Source: Promethearchaeota archaeon (lineage in GTDB: Archaea > Asgardarchaeota > Hermodarchaeia > Hermodarchaeales > Hermodarchaeaceae). Taken from it: a DNA stretch of 32,000 bases. The position numbers were made by a program, and so were the translations under genes. Below the pieces are notes generated by a model that saw nothing but the letters and a program-made list of their open reading frames with translations, was not told the origin of the DNA and did no database searches. The DNA is taken from positions 107,541-139,540 of the forward strand of contig JBHLMI010000002.1 of assembly GCA_048938295.1 (NCBI GenBank), given 5' to 3'. Shown here in pieces: positions 321-15,432 of this stretch (positions are counted from its first letter, which is position 1; each line of letters begins with the position of its first letter).

Positions 321-632
321 TTAGAGCATTTGTCCTTTTGCAGTACTAAGGAAATGAGTAATAGCATGTGTAGGGCACACTGATACGCAAGGGGGCTCAT
401 CGTCCCCACTTGTTGTCTTACATGGAGCACAACTGTACTTGAGTTTGTGTCGATGTTCCTCTCGGACACCCAAGATGTCACCATCATCAATATCGAAATC
501 ATTTGGAACAACTTCTAACACTGATGCAGGACAGACTTCAACACATTTTCCACACCCATCACATTTGTCTGTATCCAAAGTGATGAAATATTCCCCCGAT
601 CCATCCTTGTACCCGTAATTTGCAATCAACAT
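321..632 (-). CDS. bzdM: Benzoyl-CoA reductase-associated 2x[4Fe-4S] ferredoxin
   Basis: MLIANYGYKDGSGEYFITLDTDKCDGCGKCVEVCP...KLKYSCAPCK...PCVSVCP. ATG at 632 is preceded by AGGTGA; the gene follows bzdQ. Confidence 0.88.
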   Translation of the reverse strand: MLIANYGYKDGSGEYFITLDTDKCDGCGKCVEVCPASVLEVVPNDFDIDDGDILGVREEHRHKLKYSCAPCKTTSGDDEPPCVSVCPTHAITHFLSTAKGQML

Positions 633-647
633 TATCACCTGGATAAA

Positions 648-1547
648 TTAACCTTGAGAGCGTTCGTAGAGCACCTTAGCAAACAGCGCGGCTCCTGCAG
701 CCCCTGCCAGCATCGGATCAAATCGTGGGTCATCACGCCATTGGTCTGGTTTGAGGGCTTGAATTCCCAACTCCTTTTCAACACGTTTGACTATTCCAAT
801 GTTTTTAGCAATCCCACCTGTGATAACAAATTCTTTCTCGACGCCCACTCGATTTAACAAGTCAACGACACGATGGGCCATAGCCTGGCAATACGCGGCC
901 AAAACCTCTTCTTTTGACCAACCACTGCGAAGAAGGCCCACAGCTTCAGACTTAGCAAAAACTACACAGGTACTACTCACGGATTGGGGTTCCTCTTTTA
1001 CTGCGAAGGATCGGTCTCCGACTTCTTGGATTGGAACAGAAAGCAAATCGGCAAACACTTCCATGCCTCGACCAGTTCCCGCTGCACACTTATCATTCAT
1101 TAGGAAATTCTGGACCTTTCCTTTTTCATCAACGCGAATGGCTTTGCAATCCTGACCACCCATATCAAGAACCGTTCGAACAGAAGGCCCCCACATAAAA
1201 TTAGCCCCACGACCGTGACAGGCAATTTCAGTAATTGCCTTTTGTGCGAAGGGGATATTTACTCGCCCATACCCAGTTCCTACAACATAATTCATATCTT
1301 TGAGTGTCAGTCCTGTGTCCTCCAGAGCCCAGTTCATTGTCCGCTCAGCACTATCCGGACTGCTTGAGCCTGTTCGCATGACACTCTGTGCAAATACTTC
1401 TCCGTCAATCATGATTACAGTCTTTGAGCTGACTGAACCAATATCGACCCCTGCACTGATAACTTTTCCATTCTTGGGATCAATGCCTTCGACTGTGTGT
1501 CGGTATTCTGGCCATCTCCAGAATTCTTCTTTAGTCATTTTCATCAC
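648..1547 (-). CDS. bzdQ: Benzoyl-CoA reductase class I (bzd-type), ATP-binding activase subunit Q (BcrA-like)
   Basis: ASKHA motifs GVDIGSVSSK, GTGYGR, LDMGGQDCK, MNDKCAAGTGR, SSTCVVFAKSE; N-terminal EFWRWPE extension; 299 aa. Confidence 0.92.
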   Translation of the reverse strand: MMKMTKEEFWRWPEYRHTVEGIDPKNGKVISAGVDIGSVSSKTVIMIDGEVFAQSVMRTGSSSPDSAERTMNWALEDTGLTLKDMNYVVGTGYGRVNIPFAQKAITEIACHGRGANFMWGPSVRTVLDMGGQDCKAIRVDEKGKVQNFLMNDKCAAGTGRGMEVFADLLSVPIQEVGDRSFAVKEEPQSVSSTCVVFAKSEAVGLLRSGWSKEEVLAAYCQAMAHRVVDLLNRVGVEKEFVITGGIAKNIGIVKRVEKELGIQALKPDQWRDDPRFDPMLAGAAGAALFAKVLYERSQG

Positions 1548-2320
1548 TCCTTTGTTCTTTCCTGGGCTACCAGAGCAGCCCCATAAGCACTCACGTATTC
1601 AGGAAACTCAGGCACATGAACTTCTACTCCTAATCCCCGCTTCATTGAGTCCACAAAGCCCACATCATAAGCGAGTCCCCCAACCAAAAGGACGTCCTCA
1701 GTTATTCCCAACCTTCGAACCATTGAAATCACTCGTTCTGCAATCGCATCATGTATCGCACGAGCAATGTTTGCTTTTGGGGTCTGATTATGAATAAGTG
1801 AGACGACTTCAGATTCCGCAAAGACCGTACATTGTGCATTCATCGGAACGGCTTCTGTGGCTTTCAATGACATTTGACCTATCTCACTTAATTCAACTTC
1901 CAGTGCTCGGGACATGGCTTCAACAAATGCCCCTGCTCCCGCTGCACACCTTTCATTCACCACAAAGTCTTCCATACCCCCGGATTCATTACATTTGACA
2001 GCCCGTGCTTCCTCAGCCCCGACATCAATAATGGTCCGAGCTGACAATAACAACTTGACCCCTGCTTTGGCATTTGCCCCGACTTCGCTAATACTATCTG
2101 CTGCAAATTCTACTGACCCTTGGCCAATTCCGGTCTCTGTGATGTGGGCAATGTCTTCGAGCTTCAACCCTGCAGCCTTTAAAGCCATCTCTGAGGCTTC
2201 TTTAGCAGCAATATTGAGATCAAAGCCTGTTGATGCTTTTCCCTTTCCAACTATCTTTCCATCATCGAGGATGACGACTTTTACGTTCTTTGCCCCAAAG
2301 TCAATTCCGGCAGTAATCAT
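1544..2320 (-). CDS. bzdP: Benzoyl-CoA reductase class I, ATP-binding activase subunit P (BcrD-like)
   Basis: GIDFGAKNVK, IIDVGAEEARA, NERCAAGAGAF, NAQCTVFAESE; 4-nt overlap with bzdQ. Confidence 0.92.
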   Translation of the reverse strand: MITAGIDFGAKNVKVVILDDGKIVGKGKASTGFDLNIAAKEASEMALKAAGLKLEDIAHITETGIGQGSVEFAADSISEVGANAKAGVKLLLSARTIIDVGAEEARAVKCNESGGMEDFVVNERCAAGAGAFVEAMSRALEVELSEIGQMSLKATEAVPMNAQCTVFAESEVVSLIHNQTPKANIARAIHDAIAERVISMVRRLGITEDVLLVGGLAYDVGFVDSMKRGLGVEVHVPEFPEYVSAYGAALVAQERTKE

Positions 2321-2333
2321 TTTTGACTTCCTC

Positions 2334-3632
2334 TTATTTGACTCCTAATAATTCCAAGAAAGAATCCACGGCTTTCTTCGTGCGTTCCAAATCGAATTCT
2401 CTTTCATCACCCATATTTCCTTCAAAAGGAAGTACTGGGATGCCCGCTTCCTTGAAAGCGAGACGGTTCTCTGCGATGTTCAACGATAAACCTTCACATC
2501 CGCGATTATAATGCAACATAACGCCATCAACGTTCCATTCTCGAACAATGCGGAGCATCATGTCACTTTTCTTTTGAGCGGAATAGAAGTGCTGCCATTC
2601 AGGTCGAGAATGGGTCCAATCAGCTAAAATCTCGAGTGCCTGTTTTCGGGTAGTAATATCAATTCCTTGCTCTTGTGGTGTCGTTCTGGGACCCCAAGTG
2701 CCATCTTCTTTCACTTCCCATGCTCCAATCAAACTAAAAGTGTAAAGCGATCCAACGGACACTACACCATATGATTCGAGATATCGGAAAATTTTAAGAA
2801 AAGCCCATGGAGGTTGGGTGTCTGTAATAACCCGGCGTTGTTCATTACCCACTGCGGCGATTTTGTTATTGACGCGATCTTGGACTTCGTCCCGAAGTTT
2901 TCGATAGAAGGCTACAATCTCAGGTCGATGTTTCATGATAGTTCCAAATACATAGAGTGAATACATCGTCTTTTCATCGAGTGGTGCCGGGATTGTTTTA
3001 TTCAGAGCACAAATCTCTGCCCACAGGGAAGTGGCTTCACATTCGTTGTAAACCGCTTGGATTAGTTTTTGATCATCATAATCCCGGCCAGTGGTTTTTT
3101 CGAGCCAATCTATGCCATCTAGCAATTGATTCACAACGTATTCTCGACGGCGCTCATTGAAATCCTCAGTAAGTCCTGTGCTCACATCAATACAAAAGAA
3201 AGGCACGCCGCCTTCTAGGTCGCTAGCGATTTGATACCATTTTGCGTGACTACAGCAAATGTGAGTGGTCCACATGAAATCTGGTTTGGGAAATTTGCCA
3301 CCAAATACGTATTCGTCTAACACGACTGAACCAAGATAGTTTCGTAAATATGCACACAGATCTCGAGCAAATCCTTTTGCTTCAATAGCTTCATGGCATC
3401 GTGCTGCAAATTCTTTGTTGAATGCAACTGAAGCCCCATATGGTTCTCCAGTGAGACTCCACACATCGTCACCTAGACCAGCAGGAACCGCACTATAAGC
3501 CCAGGCTCCACCTGCCCATCGGATTCCACCTTTCTCATGAGCTTTTGCATAATTATCATAGTATTGTTGTCGTAACGCTTTCCCTTCATTCCAGATATCC
3601 AAAGGTTTAGTCTTGTATTTCATCTCAGTCAT
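2334..3632 (-). CDS. bzdO: Benzoyl-CoA reductase class I, subunit O (BcrB/HgdA-like)
   Basis: 2-hydroxyacyl-CoA dehydratase-family motifs [46 protein letters not shown]; 432 aa. Confidence 0.92.
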
Positions 3633-3641
3633 TTACTTCAC

Positions 3642-4766
3642 CTAAAACAGGTCGGGTAGTGCGAACGTTTCCAGAAACGCTTCAACACGAGTCTTAAACT
3701 GTCCAATTGGTACCGTTACATCAAATTCTAAGAAATAAGTTGGAATACCATTCTCTTCGAGCATTGAACGCAAAGCCGGCATATCTAATTCATGGGGATC
3801 ACAGAACTTCTGTTGAATAACAAGGGCGCCTTCAACGTTGTAGTCTTTAGCCAGTTGCAAAATGTGTGGGAATCGTTTTCGAATAGGCCAGTCTTTACTA
3901 GGACAAGGAGGTCGATCAATGTACCTGGCAGAGATAGCAGCCAACCGGTCTTCTTGAGGTTCAACCGCGTTCCAGAAATATCGAGTGCCCGTACAATGTT
4001 CATCAACCACGAGTGTAGAATCTAATGACTCAACCATTTCCACAAATTCTGTGTCGTCATCTTCACTTCCGATAATCATAAGACGAGTTCCAGTATTTCT
4101 GTCAAGTTTCCGAGTCGGTAATTCTTTTAGCACTTCTTCCAAAGCTTGATTGTGTTCTTCCTTATCGACCATTTGACTAGAAACAACCATGTACATTGCT
4201 TCGAGCCCAGTCAGAGGGGGATTTTCCTGTTTCCGAAACTCATAGACTTGTTTCATTAGTTGGCGATTCTTGTTCAAAACCTCGATACCTCGATCTATGT
4301 CATTATCCGAGATCGAGCGTCCAATCCATTTCTCCAAGGCTTTTTTGAAAACCTCCAGTTCTCCCCGTAAATATGGGTAAGCGTGTGGCGTTTGGACCCC
4401 ATGGGGCATGTACATGTAATAACTGAAGTCTAGGGGAATGTGCTTGACCCAGCTATTGAACGCTTGGCGGATATGCAGACACGATTGAGCAATCATGATA
4501 CCATTGACGTAATCGAATCGACCTTTCAAACCTTGAGCCAAGCAGTCACGGCAAAAGGGACAAAACATCCCAAAGATATGAGGTTCGGTTACATCCTGTG
4601 CCTCGTGACTGCCCAAGATGCGAACGGGAAGGATATCAGCAGCAAGAAGAAGTTCTTCGGGGACATAAGTACAGAAATAGCCGAGAACTTTTCCACCTGT
4701 TCGTTTTTTCCAAGCTTGTGCGTAGTCGTGTCGGTTAGTGTACCATTCTTTGAATTTTTCAAACAT
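3642..4766 (-). CDS. bzdN: Benzoyl-CoA reductase class I, subunit N (BcrC/HgdB-like)
   Basis: GYFCTYVPEE, MFCPFCRDCLAQG, DEHCTGTRYFWN, QQKFCDPHE. ATG at 4766 is preferred over the GTG at 4790. Confidence 0.92.
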   Translation of the reverse strand: MFEKFKEWYTNRHDYAQAWKKRTGGKVLGYFCTYVPEELLLAADILPVRILGSHEAQDVTEPHIFGMFCPFCRDCLAQGLKGRFDYVNGIMIAQSCLHIRQAFNSWVKHIPLDFSYYMYMPHGVQTPHAYPYLRGELEVFKKALEKWIGRSISDNDIDRGIEVLNKNRQLMKQVYEFRKQENPPLTGLEAMYMVVSSQMVDKEEHNQALEEVLKELPTRKLDRNTGTRLMIIGSEDDDTEFVEMVESLDSTLVVDEHCTGTRYFWNAVEPQEDRLAAISARYIDRPPCPSKDWPIRKRFPHILQLAKDYNVEGALVIQQKFCDPHELDMPALRSMLEENGIPTYFLEFDVTVPIGQFKTRVEAFLETFALPDLF

Positions 4767-4869
4767 CGGGATCTTCCTACCCTGAAACACACTTGGAGAA
4801 GGACGTGTTGTTCACGGCGTACCTGTGTGATACTCCTTAAGAATTTTTGCAAAAACTTTTTATAATGAT

Positions 4870-4885
4870 TGTTAATTATTCAACA
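4870..4885. promoter_or_regulatory. Candidate operator TGTT-N8-AACA in the divergent bzdN/regulator intergenic region
   Basis: TGTTAATTATTCAACA; the same arm/spacer pattern occurs at 15361-15376 upstream of oah. Confidence 0.3.
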
Positions 4886-4937
4886 TTAATAAAAAGAATT
4901 AGCATGAAGATGAACAAAACATCAAGGAGCTAATCAC

Positions 4938-5273
4938 TTGACCAATTGGTATACTCAAAAGACTCGAGACTTGCTTTCTGCAATCACTCACCCCTCACGC
5001 GTGGCGATTCTGGAATTCTTGTCTGACCGTGATTTTGGAACGAATAAATCATTTAGACAACATCTCAAAACTTTACAACCTAAGGCTGGTGGTGATTCAC
5101 CGGCAGTTGTTACCCATCATGTTGCTTTACTTGAAAAATCTGGTTTAGTTAAGCATTCAGTGGATGATGCTAGGGTTATAATTGCTACAGCGATGGGGCG
5201 TAGAATGATTCGATTGCTAAGACAAATGATATCAAATTCGGACTTAGAGCAGTCGTGGGATCGGTCCCTTTAG
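4938..5273 (+). CDS. ArsR-like winged-helix transcriptional regulator, divergent from bzdNOPQ
   Basis: LLSAITHPSRVAILEFL and AVVTHHVALLEKSGLVK helix pattern; TTG start with AAGGAG RBS at 4924-4929. Confidence 0.75.
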   Translation: MTNWYTQKTRDLLSAITHPSRVAILEFLSDRDFGTNKSFRQHLKTLQPKAGGDSPAVVTHHVALLEKSGLVKHSVDDARVIIATAMGRRMIRLLRQMISNSDLEQSWDRSL

Positions 5274-5914
5274 AGATTGAATCCTTGTTCGCGGAGCACT
5301 TGAGTTAGGTTCTTTCCTTGGTCTCGGGCTCGTTGTAGGAAAAATCGAAGGTAGCGATCGAAGAAAGGATTACTACCTTTTGCTGCGAGGGGTATTCCGA
5401 GGATCATGTCACCTTTTATTAGTCCTAATCGTTGGGCTGCCATTCCCACCGACCACATCATTCGGTTATCGATGAAGTGTTGGGCGGCTACAGTTATTGC
5501 AGATGAGAGGGCAATCCCTAAATCCAGGATTTTAAAGGCACAAAGAGCCGTGGTTTTCTTTTGGCCAACCGCCTTTTCATAATCAGCACAGGTTTCGAAT
5601 CCACAGGCTTTACAATCAAGGGTAAGGGGCGGGCGTTGGGCATGGATACCTATAAGGAAAATGGCAGCACTTTCTTTTACAGCTTCAGCATCAGGTTCTA
5701 AAAACCAAAAGGTTTGACCAGTGAGGTCTTCTTGGCGCATCCTTTCGATTTCTTTGGCGGTTTGGTGAATTGTGGGTCCAGATACGATTTCAATTGTTAG
5801 ATCATCGAAGCCTTTAGATTTGGGAGCAGTGGTTGCAGCTGCTGCCATTAGATTTGCTACAGATTTAACTGCCTCGTTAGTGAGCGTCTCTCTTTTTGTT
5901 GGTATTTGATTCAC
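5270..5914 (-). CDS. DUF2148-family ferredoxin-domain protein
   Basis: AAATTAPKSKG, DCKACGFETC, CAFKILDLGIALSSA, IDNRMMWSVG, NPFFDR motifs. Confidence 0.75.
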   Translation of the reverse strand: MNQIPTKRETLTNEAVKSVANLMAAAATTAPKSKGFDDLTIEIVSGPTIHQTAKEIERMRQEDLTGQTFWFLEPDAEAVKESAAIFLIGIHAQRPPLTLDCKACGFETCADYEKAVGQKKTTALCAFKILDLGIALSSAITVAAQHFIDNRMMWSVGMAAQRLGLIKGDMILGIPLAAKGSNPFFDRYLRFFLQRARDQGKNLTQVLREQGFNL

Positions 5915-5957
5915 TCTTCTGAAGATTATTTTAAATGGTCGATAGTCTTGTGCGTGT

Positions 5958-7247
5958 TCAGTTCTTTGGTGCTTTCCCAGTAATGGCTTTTACAATAGCC
6001 CAGAACTCCTCTTCTTTCAAACCAAGGCGGGTTTCTCGGAGGAGCTCAGCGGCTTTATGTAATTGGCGAAGCATTTCAACCTTATCTCTGAGTTTATGCG
6101 TCTCTTTCACCTGCGATACAATTTGCTGAATTTCTTCATCAGTGGCTTCGATGTTTTCTTGCTCCAGCTTAGTTTTTACAATATGACTCCCAGTATGTTT
6201 TCCCATGTAGAATTCAGTTTTCCGTCCAACCGTTTCAGCGGGAATTGGTTCATAGGTTAGCTGGTGAGAGAGGATGCCATGAACGTGGATACCTGCTTCG
6301 TGTGAAAAGGCGTTTTCACCAGTAATGGCTTTATGGACCGGAAGGAGGATGGCAAACGCTTCACTCACCAAATCAGCCAGTTCTTGGATTCTTTCGGTTT
6401 TGATGCCCGTTCGAACGTCATAAAGGAATTCGAGTGCCATGACTACTTCTTCGAATGGAGCGTTCCCAGCACGTTCACCAAAACCAGCGACACATACATG
6501 CGGAACAGTAACGCCTTCCTCTACTGCCGCCAAAGTGTTAGCAGTGGCTAGACCAAAGTCATTATGGTTATGAATGGAAAGCTGAACTTTACCTTTGACT
6601 TCTTGGTTAAGGCGGTCACGGACGTGAGAAACCATATATCGCATCGATTCTGGTCTTAAGAAACCTACAGTATCGGTGATTACACACCGATCTGCACCAG
6701 CTTCCAATGCAGTTTTGAAGATCTTCACCGTGTTATCAATGCTCGTGCGTGAAGTATCTTCGGAAACAAAATCAACAATAACTCCGTATTTCTTTGCATA
6801 TTCAACGCAATCGGTTACAATGCTTAGTGCTTCTTCCTGGGTTTTCTTTAGCTTGTATTTCAGGTGAAGATTACTGAATGCAATAAATATAGGTACTTCT
6901 TCGGCTCCTGCCTGGATGGCAACATCAATGTCAGATCTAATTGCACGAGCTGGCGCACATAATTTGGCTTGTTTGAAACCTTCGGCGGCTATTCGACGAA
7001 CAACCTCTTCTTCATCTTTAGAAACAGCAGGAAAACCCACGTTAATTATTGCAAATCCCATCTCATCCATGAGTTTTGCTATTTCGATCTTTTCATCAAT
7101 TAAAAGACTAGTGCCTGGTGTCTGTTCACCATCACGAAGGGTTTCATCCCAAATAAGAACTTCTTTGGGTAGATATTTTGGCTTTGTTGCAGGAACTTTG
7201 TTAAAGTTAACGATTAAGCCATCTGCCTCTAATTCGTCTAACAACAT
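5958..7247 (-). CDS. Homocitrate/isopropylmalate synthase family acyltransferase (AksA-like, no LeuA regulatory domain)
   Basis: DETLRDGEQTPG, HNHNDFGLA, GFGERAGNA, SHEAGIHVHG, YEP...GKHTG; 429 aa, too short for the C-terminal allosteric domain. Confidence 0.8.
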   Translation of the reverse strand: MLLDELEADGLIVNFNKVPATKPKYLPKEVLIWDETLRDGEQTPGTSLLIDEKIEIAKLMDEMGFAIINVGFPAVSKDEEEVVRRIAAEGFKQAKLCAPARAIRSDIDVAIQAGAEEVPIFIAFSNLHLKYKLKKTQEEALSIVTDCVEYAKKYGVIVDFVSEDTSRTSIDNTVKIFKTALEAGADRCVITDTVGFLRPESMRYMVSHVRDRLNQEVKGKVQLSIHNHNDFGLATANTLAAVEEGVTVPHVCVAGFGERAGNAPFEEVVMALEFLYDVRTGIKTERIQELADLVSEAFAILLPVHKAITGENAFSHEAGIHVHGILSHQLTYEPIPAETVGRKTEFYMGKHTGSHIVKTKLEQENIEATDEEIQQIVSQVKETHKLRDKVEMLRQLHKAAELLRETRLGLKEEEFWAIVKAITGKAPKN

Positions 7248-7352
7248 TTGCTTCTGCCATCCTGTTCAATCAATATGGATAGTATAGACTTAAGTTTCTT
7301 TCTTGTCTATAATGTAAAAACATTTGAACTCACATCAGGCAGGAGAAAATCC

Positions 7353-8129
7353 ATGGGTTCTGGATATACTAATGTAAGAGTTGACGTCTCAGATGGTGTA
7401 GGGCAGATTTTAGTGAATCGCCCACCCTTGAATATCCTTGATCAACAAACACTGACAGAACTTTATATGGCATTATTGGATATGAAGACAAATTCGGGAG
7501 TGAATATCGTTCTTCTTAGAACGGCAGGTGAGCGATTCTTTTCCGTTGGGGTGGATGTCGAACAGCATCTTCCTGAACATGCCCCAAAAACTTTAGAGGC
7601 ATTCAATAAAGTCTTTGAAGCCCTCATTGATGTTGATAAACCTGTCATTGCTGTTGTTCAAGGGTCAGCCTTAGGCGGCGGGTGTGAGCTGGCCTTTGCT
7701 TGTGATATTGTGATTGCCGTGGATTCAGCTAAGTTTGGTCAGCCAGAAATTCAAGTAGGTGCTGTGCCTACGGTTGCTGCCGCAGCCATGCATCATTTTA
7801 TTGGTCAAAAACGAACCTTCGAATTGCTTTATACTGGAGATAGCATTTCTGCTGAAAAAGCTGTACAGATTGGACTCATTAACCATGCTGTACCAGCTGA
7901 TCAGTTGGAGAAGATAGTCGATGAATTTATTACTAAACTTAAGGAGCATAGTCCAATTATGCTTCGGTATGTTCGGCGAGCCCTGTACAAAAGTAGGCAT
8001 CTCGACTTTTTGCAGGCTGTAGAAAAATCGACTGAAATTTACCTCGACTCGTTGAAAAATACCGAGGATGCGTCTGAGGGACTCAAGGCATTCTTAGAGA
8101 AGCGCAAACCAGAATGGAAAGGGAAATAG
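7353..8129 (+). CDS. dch: Cyclohexa-1,5-diene-1-carbonyl-CoA hydratase (crotonase family)
   Basis: FSVGVDVEQHLPE, ALGGGCELA, FGQPEIQVG; ATG at 7353 with AGGAGA RBS; benzoyl-CoA context. Confidence 0.78.
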   Translation: MGSGYTNVRVDVSDGVGQILVNRPPLNILDQQTLTELYMALLDMKTNSGVNIVLLRTAGERFFSVGVDVEQHLPEHAPKTLEAFNKVFEALIDVDKPVIAVVQGSALGGGCELAFACDIVIAVDSAKFGQPEIQVGAVPTVAAAAMHHFIGQKRTFELLYTGDSISAEKAVQIGLINHAVPADQLEKIVDEFITKLKEHSPIMLRYVRRALYKSRHLDFLQAVEKSTEIYLDSLKNTEDASEGLKAFLEKRKPEWKGK

Positions 8130-8144
8130 AGGTACAAGTGAAGA

Positions 8145-9176
8145 TTAGGGAATAACGATATTCCGACCAAGAACCTTGCCTTCTTCGAGGAGCTTGAAGG
8201 CTTCATTAATTTCTTCAAGTGGACGTTTGCTATCGATTATCGGTTTGATTTGAATGACCCCTTGTTCTACCATCCTCAAGAGGGGAGGATAATCGACTGC
8301 ACGACAGCCCAGCGATCCCCGTATTTCGATTTCTCGGTACATGACTCGCGATGCTGAGACAGTCCAATCGGATTCGGCATAGCCTACAACAACCATCCGT
8401 CCGCCCCATTTTACTACGGCTAATGCTTGACTCATGACATCAGGAATGCCAATGGCCTCAAAGGAGATATCTACACCTCGCTTTTGGGTTAAGTCTCGAA
8501 TCTGTTTGACGGGGTTCTCATCCTTGGAGTTTATCATCACAGTAGCTCCGAGTTTTTCAGCGAGTTTCAACTTCTTGTCATCAATATCGACGGCATATAC
8601 AATGCCACCTGTGGCAGCAGCGATTTGCACCACATTGATACCCACCCCCCCACAACCAAAAACAGCGACCAAATCACCTGGGCGAACTTCGCCACGATTC
8701 TTTACAGCATGGTAGGGTGTAGATATTGCATCAGCAACGATACTTGTTTCTTCTAGAGGTAATGAGTCGGGAATTCGAAAGATCTCCTTCGCTGGGACAC
8801 GAATGTATTCAGCATATGCGCCATCAATGTTGTTTCCCACCATTTCTTGGCGTTGGCAGACGTTTCCACGCCCTAATCGACAATTATCACAAAATCCACA
8901 GCTAAGAACGGCAGGAATTAATACGCGATCTCCTTTAGCCCAATTATCCACAGCAGATCCAAGTTCGGCAATAGTTCCTGATGCTTCATGGCCAAGTACC
9001 ATGGGAGGTTTTTTGAAAGTGGGGGTACCATGCAAATAGTGAAGGTCAGTTCTGCATACTCCACAGGCTGCCACTTTAATCAACACATCACCCGGTCCGA
9101 GTTCAGGTGTAGGTATGTCTTCGATTTGAAGCGGTTTTCCGGCGCCATAGAATACTGCAGCTTTCACTGAGAACAC
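8145..9176 (-). CDS. had: 6-hydroxycyclohex-1-ene-1-carbonyl-CoA dehydrogenase (Zn-dependent MDR family)
   Basis: CGVCRTDLHY, LGHEASG, CGFCDNCRLGRGNVC, ADAISTPYHA, FGCGGVG, GSLGCRAVDYP. The start may be the GTG at 9167. Confidence 0.8.
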   Translation of the reverse strand: MFSVKAAVFYGAGKPLQIEDIPTPELGPGDVLIKVAACGVCRTDLHYLHGTPTFKKPPMVLGHEASGTIAELGSAVDNWAKGDRVLIPAVLSCGFCDNCRLGRGNVCQRQEMVGNNIDGAYAEYIRVPAKEIFRIPDSLPLEETSIVADAISTPYHAVKNRGEVRPGDLVAVFGCGGVGINVVQIAAATGGIVYAVDIDDKKLKLAEKLGATVMINSKDENPVKQIRDLTQKRGVDISFEAIGIPDVMSQALAVVKWGGRMVVVGYAESDWTVSASRVMYREIEIRGSLGCRAVDYPPLLRMVEQGVIQIKPIIDSKRPLEEINEAFKLLEEGKVLGRNIVIP

Positions 9177-9407
9177 CTGGGCAAGTATCTGACTTAGAAC
9201 CTTATATTCTTTAGCAAGATTACATTCAATAAAAAAGTGCTTTCTCTTAGCTCAAAAGAATTAATAGATTGATTACGTGTAGTATGAAAAAAAACATCGA
9301 AGTTCAGACAAAGAACTGAAACACCTGAGGGTGCCAAGGTTGGGATCCAAAGTTAAGATAATTAAAAGTGTATGTCGTAGTTGCTATGGTGGTTGGGGAG
9401 AGAACCA

Positions 9408-9704
9408 ATGGAAAGCGCAGATTTGGGTGTCAAAATCCGTTTGATAGGTGTGTTGAAGATTACAACAGGAATCGAAGATGTAAAGCTGGATTTAGAGGAT
9501 AATGACACAATTGATTCTATTCTCAATAGGCTAGTAGAAAGGTACCCTGCTCTTCGTCAAGAATTGTACACTGAGACTGGTGAGATTCATAAGTATCTCA
9601 ACATTTTTGTTGACAACAAACCTGTTCTTCAGCAAAATCTTAATGATATCCCGATTCAGAAGCCAACGACATTAACACTGGTTATGGCAGTTGGTGGTGG
9701 ATGA
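9408..9704 (+). CDS. moaD: MoaD/ThiS ubiquitin-like sulfur carrier
   Basis: Beta-grasp pattern (LNIFVDNK) with C-terminal AVGGG; lies immediately upstream of the AOR gene. Confidence 0.8.
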   Translation: MESADLGVKIRLIGVLKITTGIEDVKLDLEDNDTIDSILNRLVERYPALRQELYTETGEIHKYLNIFVDNKPVLQQNLNDIPIQKPTTLTLVMAVGGG

Positions 9705-9727
9705 CAAACCCTCTGGAATGATCTGAA

Positions 9728-11560
9728 ATGACAACAAACCAATATGCGCTTGTCAATCTAAGTAAAGATTCAGTGAAAATCACAGAAATACCAGCAAATG
9801 TCATAAGAAGCTATTTAGGCGGTCGAGGAACGAACGTCTATCATCTTAACAAGTTGCTCAGGAAGAATGTAGATCCCCTTTCTCCAGAAAACGTGCTGAT
9901 ATTTGGTGCTGGTTTACTTACGGGGTACCTCATCCCAAATGCGTCGCGATTCAATGTGACAGCGAAATCCCCCGAATCCGGCTTTTTAGGTGACACTAAC
10001 TGTGGAGGTTATTTTGGTCCTGAGATGCGTTATGCTGGTTTTAATCAGATTATCATACTGGGCAAAGCGAAGAATCCAAGTTACATTTACCTTCAAGATG
10101 GTTCCGTTGAAATTCGAGACGCTTCGGATTATTGGGGTCTTGATACATATGACGTTCAAACCGAGTTACGGAAAGATCTAGGTGATGTACAGGCTGCTGT
10201 CACAGGAGAAGCTGGTGAAAAACTCGTCCGGTTTGCTAACATTCGAAACGGTGTGAAAAACTCTGGAGGGCGGGGTGGTCTTGGTGCGGTAATGGGATCG
10301 AAGAACTTGAAAGCCTTAGTCGCCTATGGAACTCAAGGTCTTGATGTTGCTCATCGTGAACAGCTTCTGGAGGTCACCAAAAGTATCAACGATTATGTCC
10401 TAAACTCTAAGGTCATCTCAGTCATGGGTAAACTAGGTTCTCCATATCTGTATGATGTTAGTAATGCGCTGGGGGCCATTCGCACAAAGAACAGTCAGCT
10501 GAATGCCTGGTCCGATTCACTAAACGCGGAATATTTCGAAGAGTATGCTGAGAAAATGGTTTCTTGCGCCTCTTGCATTGTCCATTGCCGGCACAGGAAT
10601 ACCATGGATGGAGAAGGCCCTGAATATACAACGATTGGATTACTGGGAGCAAACATTGGCTTAACTGATCCAAAACAGGTTATCGAGTTGAATAACCTCT
10701 GTAACCGCCTAGGGTTAGATACAGCATCTGCAGGGACCATACTTGCATGGACCTTTGAACTCTATGAAAAAGGAATTGTTGACAAATCAAAGTTCCTCGG
10801 GGAGAAACTTGAATTCGAGAATTTCGAACTTGCTAAATCTCTATTAGAAAAAATTGCCCGACGTGAGGGGCTTGGAGATGTTCTAGCGGAAAGCACTCAA
10901 GCTGTACACCATTTTGGACCAAAATCAGCAGATTATCTTATTGCTGTAAAGAATTTACCGCAAAGTGATCCCCACGATGTTCGATACATCAAGGCGTTCG
11001 CACTAGGTATAGCAACCGCTTCGAGAGGAGCGGATCACCTCCGGAGTCGACCTACCCTTGAAATCTTTCTCCGCTTACCGCAAGAAGTAAAAGAAAGCAT
11101 CTATGGCCCGGGTATCTCACCTGACCCTACGTCATATGAGGGAAAGGAGAAAGCCGTTTTTTGGTCTGATAACATGTACGCAGTAATTGATGCGGTAGGA
11201 ATCTGCAAATTCATCTGCCATGGTTTCAACAGCCCGCATCTCATTGGATATGAACAGGTAAAGGAATTTCTACACGCTGCAGTTGACCTCAAATTCGACG
11301 AACAAGAATTGCAGGAGGTTGGAAAACGAATTATTGACACGGAACGAATCCTCAATCTTCGATTTGGACTCACTCGGGCAGATGATTCATTACCCAAACG
11401 TTACTTTGATGACCCCGCTCCCCTGAAGACTGCAGAAGGTCATCATGTTGATCGTAAGCAGTTTCAAATCATGTTGAATCGATATTATGCCCTTCGCGGA
11501 TGGAACGATGAGGGATCAGTACCTGAAGAACGTGTTAATGAATTGGAGGCGATTGAATGA
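9728..11560 (+). CDS. aor: Tungsten-dependent aldehyde:ferredoxin oxidoreductase family protein (atypical active site)
   Basis: YLGGRG, AKSPESG, GRGGLGAVMGSKNLKA, SCASCIVHC, GLDT, RGADH, DAVGICKF, YYALRGW; EGPEYTT instead of EGPEYE. Confidence 0.88.
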   Translation: MTTNQYALVNLSKDSVKITEIPANVIRSYLGGRGTNVYHLNKLLRKNVDPLSPENVLIFGAGLLTGYLIPNASRFNVTAKSPESGFLGDTNCGGYFGPEMRYAGFNQIIILGKAKNPSYIYLQDGSVEIRDASDYWGLDTYDVQTELRKDLGDVQAAVTGEAGEKLVRFANIRNGVKNSGGRGGLGAVMGSKNLKALVAYGTQGLDVAHREQLLEVTKSINDYVLNSKVISVMGKLGSPYLYDVSNALGAIRTKNSQLNAWSDSLNAEYFEEYAEKMVSCASCIVHCRHRNTMDGEGPEYTTIGLLGANIGLTDPKQVIELNNLCNRLGLDTASAGTILAWTFELYEKGIVDKSKFLGEKLEFENFELAKSLLEKIARREGLGDVLAESTQAVHHFGPKSADYLIAVKNLPQSDPHDVRYIKAFALGIATASRGADHLRSRPTLEIFLRLPQEVKESIYGPGISPDPTSYEGKEKAVFWSDNMYAVIDAVGICKFICHGFNSPHLIGYEQVKEFLHAAVDLKFDEQELQEVGKRIIDTERILNLRFGLTRADDSLPKRYFDDPAPLKTAEGHHVDRKQFQIMLNRYYALRGWNDEGSVPEERVNELEAIE

Positions 11561-12012
11561 GATACATTTTCGTTTATCCTGAACGGTGCACGGGTTGCCG
11601 ATTATGTTCACTTGCTTGTTCATTAACCAAATTTGGGGAATGCAACCCAAGAAAGGCAGCAATTAGTGTTGTTCGAGATGAGTTTGAACGGTTTGAGTTT
11701 CCAGTGGTATGTTTTCAATGCCAGGACGCGCCTTGTATCGCCGCATGCCCACAAAACGCTATCACAGAGGTGGAAGGAATAACATCACGCGACGAGAACC
11801 GCTGCATTGGTTGTCGACTGTGTGCAGTTGTGTGCCCATTCTCTGCGATAACAACCCACGGTAAGGACCTAATTCGTTGTGATCTTTGTGGCGGTGATCC
11901 ACAGTGCGTAAAATATTGTTCCACAAAGGCCATTGTATATGAGGAAGAAACACAGGAAGCAATGCAACGACGAAAGGTGCAATTAGCCCGGGTTCTAATT
12001 CCGGAGAAATAA
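11557..12012 (+). CDS. Multi-[4Fe-4S] electron-transfer subunit (DmsB/AorA-like)
   Basis: CTGCRLCSLAC, CFQCQDAPCIAACP, CIGCRLCAVVCP, CDLCGGDPQCVKYC; 4-nt overlap with aor. Confidence 0.9.
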   Translation: MRYIFVYPERCTGCRLCSLACSLTKFGECNPRKAAISVVRDEFERFEFPVVCFQCQDAPCIAACPQNAITEVEGITSRDENRCIGCRLCAVVCPFSAITTHGKDLIRCDLCGGDPQCVKYCSTKAIVYEEETQEAMQRRKVQLARVLIPEK

Positions 12013-12031
12013 TTTCTGAGTGTCGTTTTAG

Positions 12032-13267
12032 TTAAGTTTGTTTTTCTCGAGATTGCCAATAACGTTGACCAATGAGTGTATCTTTTTTCAGAGAATCAAG
12101 GACATCTGAAATGTTGGCTCCAGTTCGATGAGCTTGCAGGATAAACCCTGAATTTCGAAGATCTCCAATTGCTTGGTAACCTAAAACCTTGCCATCGCAA
12201 ATTATGAGTTTCCGGAAAGCTTTGTTTCGGTGTATCCTGATAATGTCACATTTACCTATTTCAGTTGAAGGCTGGCCAATGCTAAGCACTGGTATCTCAA
12301 AGATGTTAATCAAATTGATGGCATCAGATCCCTGATATGAAACCTTTAGACCAAGCATATTTTGTGCTGCGGTTCGTCCTTGATAAATGGCATTTGGCCA
12401 TATTGCATTAATCCTTAATTTATTCGTAGCGCGTTCTATGGCTTCTGCGACATCGCCCGCCGCGTATACGTTTGCAACGTTGGTTTGCATATATTCGTTT
12501 ACAAGAATTCCTTGATTTGTTTTAATTCGGGTTCCTTGGATAATGTCAATATTTGGACGAACACCCACAGCTACGACGACAAGGTCACATTGTAGTTGTT
12601 TCTTACCAATTTGTACCCCTTTGACGGCTTTTTCACCAAGAACTTTGCTAACACTTGTTGAAGTATGAACTTCTATGCCTTGTTCTTGTAAAAGCTGGCG
12701 CACGATTTCGGCCGTATCTTCATCTAACATTCGAGGTAGAAGATGATTTTCTCTTTCAATGATTGTCACTTGGGCACCAAGGCGATGGAGAGCAGTGGCA
12801 CTTTCGATGCCGACAAATCCCCCACCAATTACAACTACATGTTTTATCTTCTGTTTCGCTCTTGCTAGGATGCTTTTGCTATCTCGCAAATTCATTAGAG
12901 TGACGACACCATCTTTATCAAGCCCTTCTATTCGAGGTTTGATTGCAGATGCACCAGTGGCGATGAGAAGCTGATCATAGGTGAGTTCGTCCCCCGTTTC
13001 AAGGAAAACGGAGTTGGACTGCGGATTTACCGCTGTGACAGTTGTGGCTAGTTTCATTTCAATTCCCTCGTCTTCAAAATACTGGGGATCAAACCGATCG
13101 AGATATTGTTCATCAATTTCTCCAGCAACAAAAGAGGGAAGAGAGAACAACGCGTAGAATCGTGTATCCTTTGTGATTAACACGACATCAAAGGTATGTT
13201 TATGTTCAATTAGTGTTTGTACTGCACTCAGCCCAGCTGCTCCGCTTCCGATTATCACAAGGCGCAT
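12032..13267 (-). CDS. FAD-dependent NAD(P)H oxidoreductase (NirB/rubredoxin-reductase/AorC-like)
   Basis: IIGSGAAG, LLIATGAS, VIGGGFVGIE, TNVANVYAAGDVAE, WPNAIYQG. Confidence 0.85.
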   Translation of the reverse strand: MRLVIIGSGAAGLSAVQTLIEHKHTFDVVLITKDTRFYALFSLPSFVAGEIDEQYLDRFDPQYFEDEGIEMKLATTVTAVNPQSNSVFLETGDELTYDQLLIATGASAIKPRIEGLDKDGVVTLMNLRDSKSILARAKQKIKHVVVIGGGFVGIESATALHRLGAQVTIIERENHLLPRMLDEDTAEIVRQLLQEQGIEVHTSTSVSKVLGEKAVKGVQIGKKQLQCDLVVVAVGVRPNIDIIQGTRIKTNQGILVNEYMQTNVANVYAAGDVAEAIERATNKLRINAIWPNAIYQGRTAAQNMLGLKVSYQGSDAINLINIFEIPVLSIGQPSTEIGKCDIIRIHRNKAFRKLIICDGKVLGYQAIGDLRNSGFILQAHRTGANISDVLDSLKKDTLIGQRYWQSREKQT

Positions 13268-13391
13268 GTGAATCCACTCAACCCCAAAAATAGTCCCTTT
13301 CGCCTAAAAATACGCTTGGTAGCAGCACACAATTTTGGCGAATAACAGGTTTTTTATTAACATCCTGCATAGCCTCTTCGAGGTGACGCTT

Positions 13392-14255
13392 TTGGAAATC
13401 AAAAAAGTCGCAGTCGTTGGCGCTGGACTCATGGGTCACGGTGTGACACAAGTTCTGGCTCAGATTGCTGGTTATGAGGTATATCTGAAAGACATCAAGC
13501 AAGAATTCATTGACACGGGTATGGGTCGTATCAAATGGAGTCTTGACAAACTTGTTGAGAAAGAGAAACTCGCTCAAGCTGATGCGGATGCAACACTTAA
13601 CCGTATTCACCCTACCCTTGAAATGAAGGAAGCGATGAGTGACACAGATTTCATCATTGAGGCAGTGCCCGAAAATTTAGATCTTAAGAAGAAGATCTTT
13701 GCTGAAATGGATGAACTAGCACCTTCACATGCAATACTCGCATCGAACACTTCATCAATCAGTATTAGCCAGATAGCCGCAGCCACTAAACGTCCCGATA
13801 AGGTAGTGGGTATGCACTTCTTTAATCCTGTGCAAATCATGAAGCTTGTTGAAATTATCCGGGGAGAAAATACGTCAGATAACACCATTTCAGTGGTTGA
13901 GCAAGTATCACAGAAAATGGGTAAGGAAACCGTGCTTTGTAAGAAAGATTCACCTGGTTTCATTGTCAACCGTATCCTAGTTCCTGCGCTTAATGAAGCC
14001 ATCTGGTTACTCCAAGAGGATGTTGCGGAACCTGAGGATATTGATAAGGCAATTAAATTGGGATTAAACTGGCCAATGGGACCAATCACACTCTTGGATT
14101 ATGTAGGATTAGACACTACTCTTTCCATCACTAAAGTATTTCAAAAAGAGATGGATGAACACAAATACGCTGCAGCTCCACTACTTGGAAAGATGGTTAA
14201 AGAAGGCAAGTTAGGTAGAAAGACAAAGCAAGGATTTTATGATTGGAACAAGTAA
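13392..14255 (+). CDS. hbd: 3-hydroxyacyl-CoA dehydrogenase
   Basis: VGAGLMGHG, IEAVPENLDLK, ASNTSSI, GMHFFNP, PGFIVNR, PMGP; TTG start at 13392 after GAGGTG. Confidence 0.9.
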   Translation: MEIKKVAVVGAGLMGHGVTQVLAQIAGYEVYLKDIKQEFIDTGMGRIKWSLDKLVEKEKLAQADADATLNRIHPTLEMKEAMSDTDFIIEAVPENLDLKKKIFAEMDELAPSHAILASNTSSISISQIAAATKRPDKVVGMHFFNPVQIMKLVEIIRGENTSDNTISVVEQVSQKMGKETVLCKKDSPGFIVNRILVPALNEAIWLLQEDVAEPEDIDKAIKLGLNWPMGPITLLDYVGLDTTLSITKVFQKEMDEHKYAAAPLLGKMVKEGKLGRKTKQGFYDWNK

Positions 14256-14339: not shown

Positions 14340-15275
14340 TTACTTGTCTAACTTTGCGCCACATTTTCCGCAGTGAGTGAACTCGCTGGGGAGGTAGGTT
14401 GTGCCACAGCTTGGGCAGGTTTTTTCCCATGGCCCCCATTTGAATTCAGGTGATTTACCATCTGCGGCTTCTTGTCGCAATCGCATATATGCTGGAGGTC
14501 GTTTTTCAACGAAGGCCCACATTCCTTCATGAGGTTCTTGAGAACTGAAGTGGACACTAAGCCAATCTCGTACACTTGGCCAAGTTAAGGACCAAACAAG
14601 GTCTTTCCAGAAGTTCACTTGGGCTTTAGTAAAGCGTAGACATTCGGGGAATTTTTCTAGGATTTTCTTTGACCATTCTGCAATTGTTTCATCGAGTTTA
14701 TCATAGGGAACAACTTCGTTAACGAGTCCCCAATCCTTGGCTTTTTCAGCACTGATTCGATCGCATGTGAAGAGCATTTCTCGGGCTCGCCGGTCACCAA
14801 TGATGATTGGCAACCACTGGGTAGCACCTCCCGCGGCAACACTCCCAACACGTGTTCCTACTTGTAAAATTTCAACGTGGTCTGCAGCGATTGCTAGGTC
14901 GCATGCCATTTGGACTTCATTTCCGCCACCAGCAACGATACCGTTTAATCGAGCTATCACTGGTTTTCCACAATGTCGTAGCAGATGTAGGGCACGTTCA
15001 AAAATTTCGCACCATTTCCAAAAGTCTCGGGGTTTTTTGGTGTATTTGGTCGCATATTCTTTAACGTCGCCTCCAGTACAGAAAGCTTTCTTGCCGGCAC
15101 CAGTAACAACGATGACTCCGACTTCATCATCCCAAGAGGCTGTATGAAGGGCATCAGACATTTCGTTGAGAGTCAGAAGGGTATAAGCATTGTATTTTTC
15201 TTCTCGGTTAATTGTGATGGTAGCGACCCAGTCTTTTTTCTCATAAAGAATTTCTTTGTATTTGGGTTTAGCCAT
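14340..15275 (-). CDS. oah: 6-oxocyclohex-1-ene-1-carbonyl-CoA hydrolase (ring-opening; BzdY/BamA-like)
   Basis: AFCTGGDVKEYA, AGGGNE, QVGTRVGSVAAGGATQWLP, VNFWKD, C-terminal CPSC...CGKCG; ATG at 15275. Confidence 0.85.
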   Translation of the reverse strand: MAKPKYKEILYEKKDWVATITINREEKYNAYTLLTLNEMSDALHTASWDDEVGVIVVTGAGKKAFCTGGDVKEYATKYTKKPRDFWKWCEIFERALHLLRHCGKPVIARLNGIVAGGGNEVQMACDLAIAADHVEILQVGTRVGSVAAGGATQWLPIIIGDRRAREMLFTCDRISAEKAKDWGLVNEVVPYDKLDETIAEWSKKILEKFPECLRFTKAQVNFWKDLVWSLTWPSVRDWLSVHFSSQEPHEGMWAFVEKRPPAYMRLRQEAADGKSPEFKWGPWEKTCPSCGTTYLPSEFTHCGKCGAKLDK

Positions 15276-15360
15276 CTTAACCACCAATGTTGGTGAGTAA
15301 GTACCAGATTCTCTTATTTGAAGTTTCCACTTAATACTACAAATTTCGATGAGCGTAGAA

Positions 15361-15376
15361 TGTTCTGTTACGAACA
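15361..15376. promoter_or_regulatory. Candidate operator TGTT-N8-AACA upstream of oah
   Basis: ATGTTCTGTTACGAACAT (6-bp arms ATGTTC/GAACAT at 15360-15377). Confidence 0.3.
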
Positions 15377-15432
15377 TAGTTAAATTAGAACATCATTTCG
15401 AAGAGTCGATCTCAAATGTACTTAGGACCAAA

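Follow-up and report, generated by a model that had tools for sequence, protein, structure and literature searches.

What does an enzyme with the fold of aldehyde oxidoreductase (AOR) do once the glutamate that serves as its general base has been replaced? The question is raised by worL, a gene in a 32,000-nt stretch of DNA (the window) of contig JBHLMI010000002.1 from a Hermodarchaeaceae archaeon, where it lies a few kilobases from the genes for a benzoyl-CoA reductase of class I. It is firmly supported that WorL is a catalytic subunit of the AorABC kind, that it belongs to a distinct, widespread clade with Thr or Ser in place of the Glu, and that it is embedded in archaeal class I aryl-CoA reductase islands. 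With a little more confidence than doubt, we read worL as encoding the catalytic subunit of an AorABC-like pterin oxidoreductase of this Thr/Ser clade, presumably a tungsten enzyme, that works in an archaeal aromatic-catabolism island and whose substrate is likely an aromatic carbonyl compound.

All coordinates are positions in the window. Three co-directional genes on the + strand occupy 9408-12012; they are given below with the active-site motifs and with the convergent gene worN.

9408-9704, + strand: moaD-like gene, encoding a 98-residue MoaD/ThiS/SAMP1-like β-grasp protein with a C-terminal GGG
9728-11560, + strand: worL, 610 residues, AFOR_N and AFOR_C domains, catalytic subunit of the AOR/WOR family
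10565-10588, + strand: CxxCxxxC motif, whose C280, C283 and C287 ligate the [4Fe-4S] cluster together with C493, the fourth ligand
10613-10633, + strand: EGPEYTT stretch, gaa ggc cct gaa tat aca acg
10628-10630, + strand: Thr301 codon ACA, in the column of Pyrococcus furiosus AOR Glu313 (general base) and Escherichia coli YdhV Cys336 (metal ligand)
10958-10978, + strand: PQSDPHD loop, His416 corresponding to P. furiosus Tyr427 and Asp417 to Asp428
11036-11038, + strand: His437 codon, within RGADHLRSRP; equivalent to P. furiosus His448, a second-shell base, and invariant
11557-12012, + strand: worS, a 151-residue polyferredoxin with Fer4 domains
12032-13267, - strand: worN, an FAD/NAD(P) subunit of the pyridine-nucleotide-disulfide-oxidoreductase fold, convergent with worS

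The active site of WorL

An earlier note on this DNA had read a replacement of the catalytic Glu by Thr, and the codons at 10613-10633 indeed specify EGPEYTT exactly, with Thr301 opposite Glu313 of P. furiosus AOR (PDB 1aor). The HMMER alignment of the two proteins (385 bits, E 6e-114, residues 5-607 against 7-600) places EGPEYT301 on EGPEYE313 and H437 of the RGADH motif on H448. The residues that bind the cofactors are retained, as the same note had said of the His, the Fe-S cysteines and the GLDT motif: C280, C283 and C287 are aligned to P. furiosus C288, C291 and C295 and are invariant in a 78-sequence alignment, and C493 does not vary within the clade and is conserved to at least 90% across the family. 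The pterin-binding Asp residues are likewise kept in the clade, D331 (GLDT) being invariant and D488 (DxxGxC) nearly so; they and C493 also align with their P. furiosus counterparts. The loop that follows CxxCxxxC was described as short; canonical AOR representatives have about 8 residues more there.

The PQSDPHD loop requires more care. Its letters are as first reported, but the accompanying reading of the tyrosine loop does not stand: Tyr427 is substituted by His416, not lost. The placement of this residue differs between alignments, since the pairwise HMMER alignment sets Tyr427 against Ser413 and the 164-sequence family alignment sets it against His416 (PHD on AYD). We take His416 as the equivalent because in the family alignment the near-invariant Asp417 anchors on P. 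furiosus Asp428. The loop carries a one-residue insertion relative to AOR sensu stricto.

The second shell of aldehyde-oxidising members comprises Thr243, Glu313, Tyr427 and His448, together with Glu311, Tyr312 and Tyr452 (PMC12096430, PMC13328260). In WorL, Thr243 corresponds to Ser238, Glu311 to Glu299, Tyr312 to Tyr300, Glu313 to Thr301, Tyr427 to His416 and His448 to His437; the set Thr243, Glu313, Tyr427 and His448 of aldehyde-oxidising AOR sensu stricto is therefore incomplete. A His at the Tyr427 position is found in the active enzymes AOR-Cf and ASOR (PMC12096430). Because this swap is known in active enzymes and conservative, the alignments point to Glu as the only member of the second-shell set that is truly lost. 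Arg441 at the Tyr452 column was set aside as a meaningful loss, the column being variable even in AOR sensu stricto. We also rejected Asp436 of RGADH as a compensating carboxylate: the Asp occurs with Glu in 46 sequences and without it in 61, and independent contrasts give no signal.

Among characterised clades, only BamB and YdhV lack second-shell residues, and each has a Cys metal ligand instead (PMC12096430, PMC13328260). Cys336 of E. coli YdhV, a Mo ligand (ydhV at L094:3729-5831), aligns exactly on the Thr301 column; it lies 22 residues past the third cluster Cys, and the spacing is equal in a canonical AOR representative. BamB was absent from the results of a sub-region PDB search, so its Cys322 was mapped to this column through YdhV Cys336 and PMC12096430, not by direct alignment of BamB. 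WorL has Thr301 where the BamB-type Cys ligand to W (BamB Cys322, YdhV Cys336) would be expected. The column thus looks like a three-state switch in the family: aldehyde oxidisers have Glu there, BamB and YdhV have Cys, and the present clade has Thr or Ser.

Fold and family membership

AFOR_N (238.6 bits, E 7e-71) and AFOR_C (336.8 bits, E 2.5e-100) together span the full length of WorL. With these domains, an AOR fold, the four Cys and the pterin Asp motifs, WorL belongs to the AOR/WOR family and is predicted to hold a pterin cofactor, probably with W, and one [4Fe-4S] cluster. An AlphaFold2 (AF2) model built on the 78-sequence alignment reached a pLDDT of 95.8; it replaced a single-sequence model that had reached 36. 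Known structures were ranked against it with VIA-align. The Z scores were 53.7 for 1aor, 53.6 for 9mqx, 52.8 for 9g7j, 51.4 for FOR, 45.4 for WOR5, 44.3 for AorB and 41.1 for BamB, and the model superimposes on 1aor with a root mean square deviation of 1.6 Å over 583 residues. The modelled backbone is thus AOR-like, without additions of the BamB type.

The sequence features of BamB had been said to be missing, and the comparison bears this out: BamB gives 219 bits, with only WOR83 and WOR5 lower among solved members, and its Z score is the weakest. Genes for BamC-I partners (a three-cluster BamC, Hdr-like BamDE, BamFGHI) were not found among the window genes annotated with Pfam and NCBIfam. 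A BamB-like identity was rejected for WorL and also for the paralogues of 640-656 residues in the same genome, one of which (L003) best matches 9mqx and 1aor.

A distinct Thr/Ser clade

The main tree contained 164 sequences: the query, eight paralogues from its own genome, 14 close hits and 141 of the 150 listed 50%-cluster representatives (520-720 residues). In the FastTree reconstruction WorL lies within a 38-row superclade (support 99), no member of which has Glu at the 313 column; instead the column holds A, G, S, T, V, Y, H or M. The T/S subclade that holds WorL has support of 95-100. IQ-TREE, run on 59 sequences with E. coli YdhV as root, supported the superclade with an SH-aLRT value of 99 and the subclade with one of 100, and set both apart from the canonical AOR-like group, including a representative with 9mqx motifs. 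The AOR references in these trees were cluster representatives that resemble 9mqx and the own-genome paralogues, not the PDB sequences themselves. WorL accordingly branches in a superclade of its own and not inside the clade of characterised AORs, in agreement with the initial suggestion of a W-enzyme clade separate from AOR sensu stricto and BamB. In this sample, which is biased towards the query, Glu is missing from 80 of the 164 sequences, and the tree shows 15 or more changes of state at the column. Glu-less members therefore appear to be common among uncharacterised lineages. In the published 92-clade scheme, the Thermoplasmatales entries of clade 7 are a different protein, of 774 residues.

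Thr or Ser follows GPEY in all of the 120 closest database homologues, which also carry RGADH and PQSDPH; their identity to WorL is 62-92% (Asgard archaea 78-92%, mostly Thermoplasmata 62-67%). We also scanned one genome per species with the patterns GADHLR[SN]RP and LPQSDPHD, which makes conservation of these two motifs in the recovered loci circular but leaves the Thr/Ser column unaffected. At that column the best 80 loci gave 65 T and 13 S, which accounts for every one of the 78 readable orthologues. A relative is encoded in at least 361 species-level genomes. The hosts are Hermodarchaeota (78-92% identity), Thermoplasmatota, Planctomycetota/Brocadiia, Zixibacteria, Aminicenantia, Chloroflexota, Bacillota (including a metagenome-assembled genome (MAG) of Thermincola ferriacetica), Latescibacterota and others. 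The 2.5-Mb genome of the present archaeon itself contains eight further AOR-family paralogues (contigs C4, C17, C33, C38 and C61; L001-L008), nine in all; all of the eight keep Glu at the 313 column, and no BamB-like protein is among them. Taken together, these alignments indicate that the absence of Glu is a trait of the clade and not a peculiarity of this gene.

Orthologues from Planctomycetota/Brocadiia MAGs (L037, L048-L052, L063, L066) share 59-65% identity with the query, as near to it as the Thermoplasmata ones. This closeness hints at either inter-domain transfer of the module or mis-binned contigs.

Partner subunits

As first noted, worL has its own MoaD and Fe-S subunit genes, the moaD-like gene and worS, which flank it. 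The stop codon of worL and the ATG of worS overlap by 4 nt (ATGA at 11557-11560), and worS adjoins worL in 62 of the 80 loci. WorS has 16 invariant Cys residues, predicted to bind four [4Fe-4S] clusters, and its best PDB matches are 9mqx_E (118 bits) and 8c0z_C (AorA, 100 bits). The moaD-like product matches PF02597 ThiS at 26.4 bits (cut-off 22.5) and the NCBIfam models SAMP1 (48 bits) and moaD_arch (34 bits), each below cut-off; it is presumably a sulfur carrier serving pterin cofactor synthesis. The gene is kept directly upstream of worL in Hermodarchaeota and in some Thermoplasmata.

The third subunit gene, worN, had been overlooked. WorN matches Pyr_redox_2 (223 bits), a PadH-like model (251 bits) and 8c0z_E (AorC, 164 bits), and in 45 of the 80 loci worN is no more than 5 kb away from worL. 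Bacteria have worN directly upstream in a co-directional worN-worL-worS arrangement; in archaea it is convergent. A WorS-WorN complex model scored 0.84 against 0.05 for the best control, with runs agreeing in at least 66% of contacts and a partner pLDDT of at least 87. The mark applied to such models is reached by 58 of 80 solved complexes and by 2 of 110 mismatched pairs. This pass may reflect likeness to the solved 8c0z rather than binding.

A four-cluster WorS is thus encoded beside WorL, and WorN is associated by gene adjacency and conservation, as in the 'Class III' WorL-WorS-WorN architecture defined in PMC13328260. The assignment of the module to this AorABC-like architecture is firmly supported. 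By analogy, the FAD/NAD subunit suggests that electrons reach NAD(P) by a route like that of AOR; we infer both this coupling and tungsten as the metal.

Linkage with benzoyl-CoA reductase genes

The module sits in an island of genes for aromatic catabolism, whose parts nearest to it are as follows.

321-4790, - strand: bzdN-O-P-Q, class I benzoyl-CoA reductase, then a small bzdM-like ferredoxin with two [4Fe-4S] clusters
5270-9176: DUF2148 Fe-S protein (- strand), HMGL/IPMS-like synthase (- strand), dch-like enoyl-CoA hydratase (+ strand) and had-like zinc-dependent alcohol dehydrogenase (Zn-ADH; - strand)
13335-14255, + strand: 3-hydroxyacyl-CoA dehydrogenase (3HCDH_N, 226 bits)
14340-15377, - strand: crotonase-family hydrolase, oah/BadI/MenB-like

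The NCBIfam equivalogs pass their cut-offs for BzdN (517 against 454), BzdO (622 against 449) and BzdQ (407 against 380). The had-like gene is divergent from moaD and scores 266 bits with TIGR03201, under the cut-off of 339. Just past the bzd operon, 12 kb upstream of the window (L095:5930-11973), lie iorB-iorA, an Amidohydro_2 gene and the gene of a 742-residue BzdV-like NAD(P)H Fe-S flavoprotein that carries DUF7508 at its C-terminus. The upstream arm of the island thus runs from iorAB, Amidohydro_2 and the flavoprotein through the bzdM-like ferredoxin, bzdQPON, DUF2148 and the HMGL/IPMS-like gene to the dch-like hydratase and the had-like Zn-ADH. Downstream of the module come the 3-hydroxyacyl-CoA dehydrogenase, the oah/BadI-like hydrolase, thiolase/DUF35 pairs, an ACS-type ligase and an F420-type LLM oxidoreductase. 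Two - strand open reading frames at 13278-14089 (110 and 160 residues) have no family match, overlap the + strand dehydrogenase gene and are probably not genes.

Other Hermodarchaeota (78-92% identity) share this layout. In a Thermoplasmata MAG (L024, DAOVAY010000001.1) an 11-kb single-strand run with short gaps, at 1338-12290, reads bzdN-O-P-Q, ferredoxin, an 865-residue GltD/NuoG-like NAD(P)H Fe-S flavoprotein, GNAT, a metallo-β-lactamase (MBL)-fold hydrolase (glyoxalase II-like), moaD, worL and worS; its BzdN, BzdO and BzdQ pass the NCBIfam equivalog cut-offs. An Anaerolineales MAG (L081) has, collinear on one strand, genes for a benzoyl-CoA reductase-like protein, an enoyl-CoA hydratase (ECH), a Zn-ADH, Amidohydro_2, IorAB, an HMGL-like protein and WorL. 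A Latescibacterota locus reads worN-worL-worS-ApbA-ECH-Zn-ADH-short-chain dehydrogenase-ECH-thiolase, and an Aminicenantia locus is similar.

Linkage was counted in loci flanked on either side by 6 kb or more, for Bzd subunits at 50% identity or more within 10 kb of the module. Such subunits were present in 3 of 4 loci of Hermodarchaeota and in 12 of 19 of Thermoplasmatota. At the level of whole genomes, worL and bzdN occur together in 9 of the 19 genomes of the Hermodarchaeota family, worL only in 1, bzdN only in 2 and neither in 7. The corresponding figures for one Thermoplasmata class (157 genomes) are 8, 3, 0 and 146; none of the 8 genomes with bzdN falls outside the 11 that have a worL orthologue. 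The earlier note had proposed co-occurrence with bzd genes as a check and had named an absence of links to aromatic pathways as evidence against its view. The linkage holds in two archaeal phyla.

Several loci have further neighbours. In the Thermoplasmata MAG described above, a set of genes for a 2-hydroxyacyl-CoA dehydratase, its activator, ApbA and a CoA ligase converges on the bzd-wor run. The left flank differs in a Hermodarchaeota relative (JBHLPH010000006.1, 91% identical; L012/L014:486-9447), which has there a corrinoid set (MtrH, RACo, B12-binding, URO-D) and a second AOR paralogue accompanied by its own genes for Fe-S, MoaD and Zn-ADH proteins; the gene content of this flank suggests O-demethylation of methoxylated aromatics. 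B12-binding genes also lie downstream of worL-worS in a Thermincola MAG (L070).

Possible reactions of the module

In the reading that we favour, electrons from a substrate at the W-bis-pterin site would pass to the [4Fe-4S] cluster of WorL, then through the four clusters of WorS and the FAD of WorN to NAD(P)+, or would follow this path in reverse. The conserved Thr/Ser hydroxyl would stand in for the general base Glu313 and His for Tyr427, with His448, Glu311, Tyr312 and Thr243 (as Ser) retained, and catalysis could proceed through a His/His/Thr proton relay in place of the Glu. In archaea the module would most likely act on an aromatic carbonyl intermediate of the pathway encoded by the island, alongside class I BzdNOPQ, the ferredoxin, the BzdV-like flavoprotein, the 2-oxoacid oxidoreductase IOR and the products of the dch/had/oah-like and β-oxidation genes. 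The AOR-like pocket, the NAD-type electron exit and the setting of IOR and aromatic genes would favour an aromatic aldehyde or an aromatic acid as the substrate, with the proton relay altered.

Some observations weigh against this reading. Every characterised aldehyde-oxidising clade retains the Glu (PMC12096430), and for this reason ordinary aldehyde chemistry is doubtful. Bzd subunits, by the count given above, were found in 0 of 12 long bacterial loci. Related genomes are not independent, and most of the co-occurrence is one physically linked island. The Hermodarchaeota relative JBHLPH010000006.1 has corrinoid methyltransferase genes beside the module, with bzdN 19 kb away on the same contig, and in archaea worN is on the strand opposite to worL. 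Finally, WtpA was not found by its family model in this 91.6%-complete genome, and sequence cannot tell W from Mo.

The Glu could also have been replaced without a change of reaction. WorL would then be an ordinary broad-spectrum AOR that detoxifies aldehydes leaked from IOR and other 2-oxoacid oxidoreductases, with His437, His416, Asp417 or water in the place of Glu313, in a neighbourhood of general amino-acid and aromatic fermentation. We consider this unlikely, though with a real chance of being right. P. furiosus AOR is the closest relative both in sequence (385 bits) and in structure (Z 53.7), Glu311, Tyr312, His448 and Thr243 (as Ser) are retained, active enzymes with the Tyr-to-His change are known (PMC12096430), the subunits resemble those of AorABC, IOR is encoded nearby and the genome has nine AOR paralogues. 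On the other side, there is no characterised aldehyde-oxidising member without the Glu (PMC12096430), the Thr/Ser is strictly conserved and not drifting, Asp436 has no compensatory pattern, and the nesting with bzdN in the genomes of two phyla is tighter than a housekeeping detoxifier predicts. By analogy, the rule that aldehyde oxidisers keep the Glu would favour a different chemistry, as would the fact that the same column supplies a metal ligand in BamB and YdhV; judged from the missing Glu by itself, non-aldehyde chemistry is plausible. One form of it is a redox reaction on an aryl or arylacetyl thioester or acid, such as water-dependent α-oxidation of phenylacetyl-CoA to phenylglyoxylate, which would bridge IOR and benzoyl-CoA reductase as a functional analogue of PadBCD, or reductive dehydroxylation of hydroxybenzoyl-CoA; the Thr/Ser hydroxyl would lie where BamB and YdhV have their Cys metal ligand. 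BamB, YdhV and CsWOR41, whose functions are non-aldehyde or unknown, likewise lack the Glu (PMC12096430, PMC13328260), YdhV Cys336 falls on the Thr301 column with an equal 22-residue spacing, WorS and WorN are similar to the phenylglyoxylate dehydrogenase subunits PadI and PadH, and IorAB, the MBL-fold glyoxalase II-like hydrolase (possibly a thioesterase) and benzoyl-CoA reductase share islands with the module. Family models also found no xanthine-oxidase-family Mo-binding domains in this genome, and hence no Mo enzyme of the HcrA type. Yet WorL is no longer than P. furiosus AOR and has no BamB-like insertions, BamB is its poorest structural match, and the rest of the second shell is AOR-like; chemistry of this kind is rather unlikely. 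A stronger version, which we hold to be doubtful, makes the clade a third mechanistic type in the AOR/WOR family, its Thr/Ser hydroxyl possibly contacting W or an oxo/aqua ligand and the enzyme catalysing a non-aldehyde step otherwise lacking in archaeal and Chloroflexota aromatic fermenters. Its most attractive candidate, speculative as it is, is NAD(P)-linked conversion of arylacetyl-CoA to arylglyoxylate, from which IOR would form benzoyl-CoA for BzdNOPQ. This α-oxidation is proposed because it fits the neighbours: IOR, the glyoxalase II-like hydrolase, the PadH/PadI-like partners and the benzoyl-CoA reductase.

There are two further readings. A low-potential oxidation at the W site could, with WorS, WorN and the BzdV-like flavoprotein, re-reduce the BzdM ferredoxin and so supply electrons to the ATP-dependent reductase, as KGOR does in Thauera. 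The order of genes in Thermoplasmata, where worL-worS follow bzdNOPQ, the ferredoxin and the NAD(P)H flavoprotein on one strand, is consistent with it, and the module also adjoins genes for 2-hydroxyacyl-CoA dehydratase and its activator, which need electrons of the same kind. Such a role is improbable all the same: it would require a stoichiometric low-potential substrate as well, WorN points to NAD(P) and not to ferredoxin, and IOR and the BzdV-like protein already fill the role. That WorL is a catalytically dead or purely structural paralogue is highly improbable. The proposed general base is lost, and P. furiosus WOR4 is a relative without known activity (PMC12096430), but the cofactor ligands and many pocket residues of WorL are invariant across archaea and at least 10 bacterial phyla, and the protein has dedicated subunits and a MoaD gene.

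Significance

A physiological role is known for only 5 of the 92 recognised WOR clades (PMC13328260). The only family members known to lack the catalytic Glu are BamB, with its different chemistry, and YdhV; the Thr/Ser clade differs from both. It extends over Asgard archaea, Thermoplasmatota and many bacterial phyla, and in archaea it is tied physically and phyletically to ATP-dependent benzoyl-CoA reductase. For the anaerobic degradation of aromatics and amino acids in marine sediments, the module is a candidate for either a new step that depends on tungsten or a changed mechanism of catalysis. The bcr cluster is described in a report on Hermodarchaeota, which refers only in general terms to 'multiple aldehyde ferredoxin oxidoreductases' (PMC8163825), and in the literature searched we found no description of this clade, of its Glu-less site or of its link with bzdNOPQ.

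Comparison with known systems

P. furiosus AOR is the best match to WorL in sequence and fold (37% identity), with the same cofactor ligands and with E311, Y312 and H448 retained in WorL. However, WorL lacks Glu313, has His for Tyr427 and a shorter post-cluster loop, and branches outside the AOR sensu stricto clade. The P. furiosus enzyme is a homodimer that uses free ferredoxin, whereas the partners of WorL are WorS and WorN.

AorABC of Aromatoleum aromaticum (AaAOR, 8c0z) has the same set of components, namely a W-pterin subunit, a polyferredoxin with four [4Fe-4S] clusters, an FAD/NAD subunit and a MoaD-like gene, and a similar context of aromatic catabolism. Its catalytic subunit is only a distant relative of WorL (240 bits, Z 44.3) and belongs to another clade. 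Unlike AorABC, the present system has Thr or Ser for Glu313, a worN gene that is convergent in archaea, and linked class I benzoyl-CoA reductase operons.

The catalytic Glu is missing as well from two other members of the family, BamB (4z3w) and E. coli YdhV, whose ligand Cys falls on the Thr301 column; BamB, moreover, acts in benzoyl-CoA metabolism too. In contrast to both, WorL has no Cys at that column. WorS has four clusters where BamC has three, the annotated window genes include no BamD-I, and the genome of this archaeon carries a class I reductase instead.

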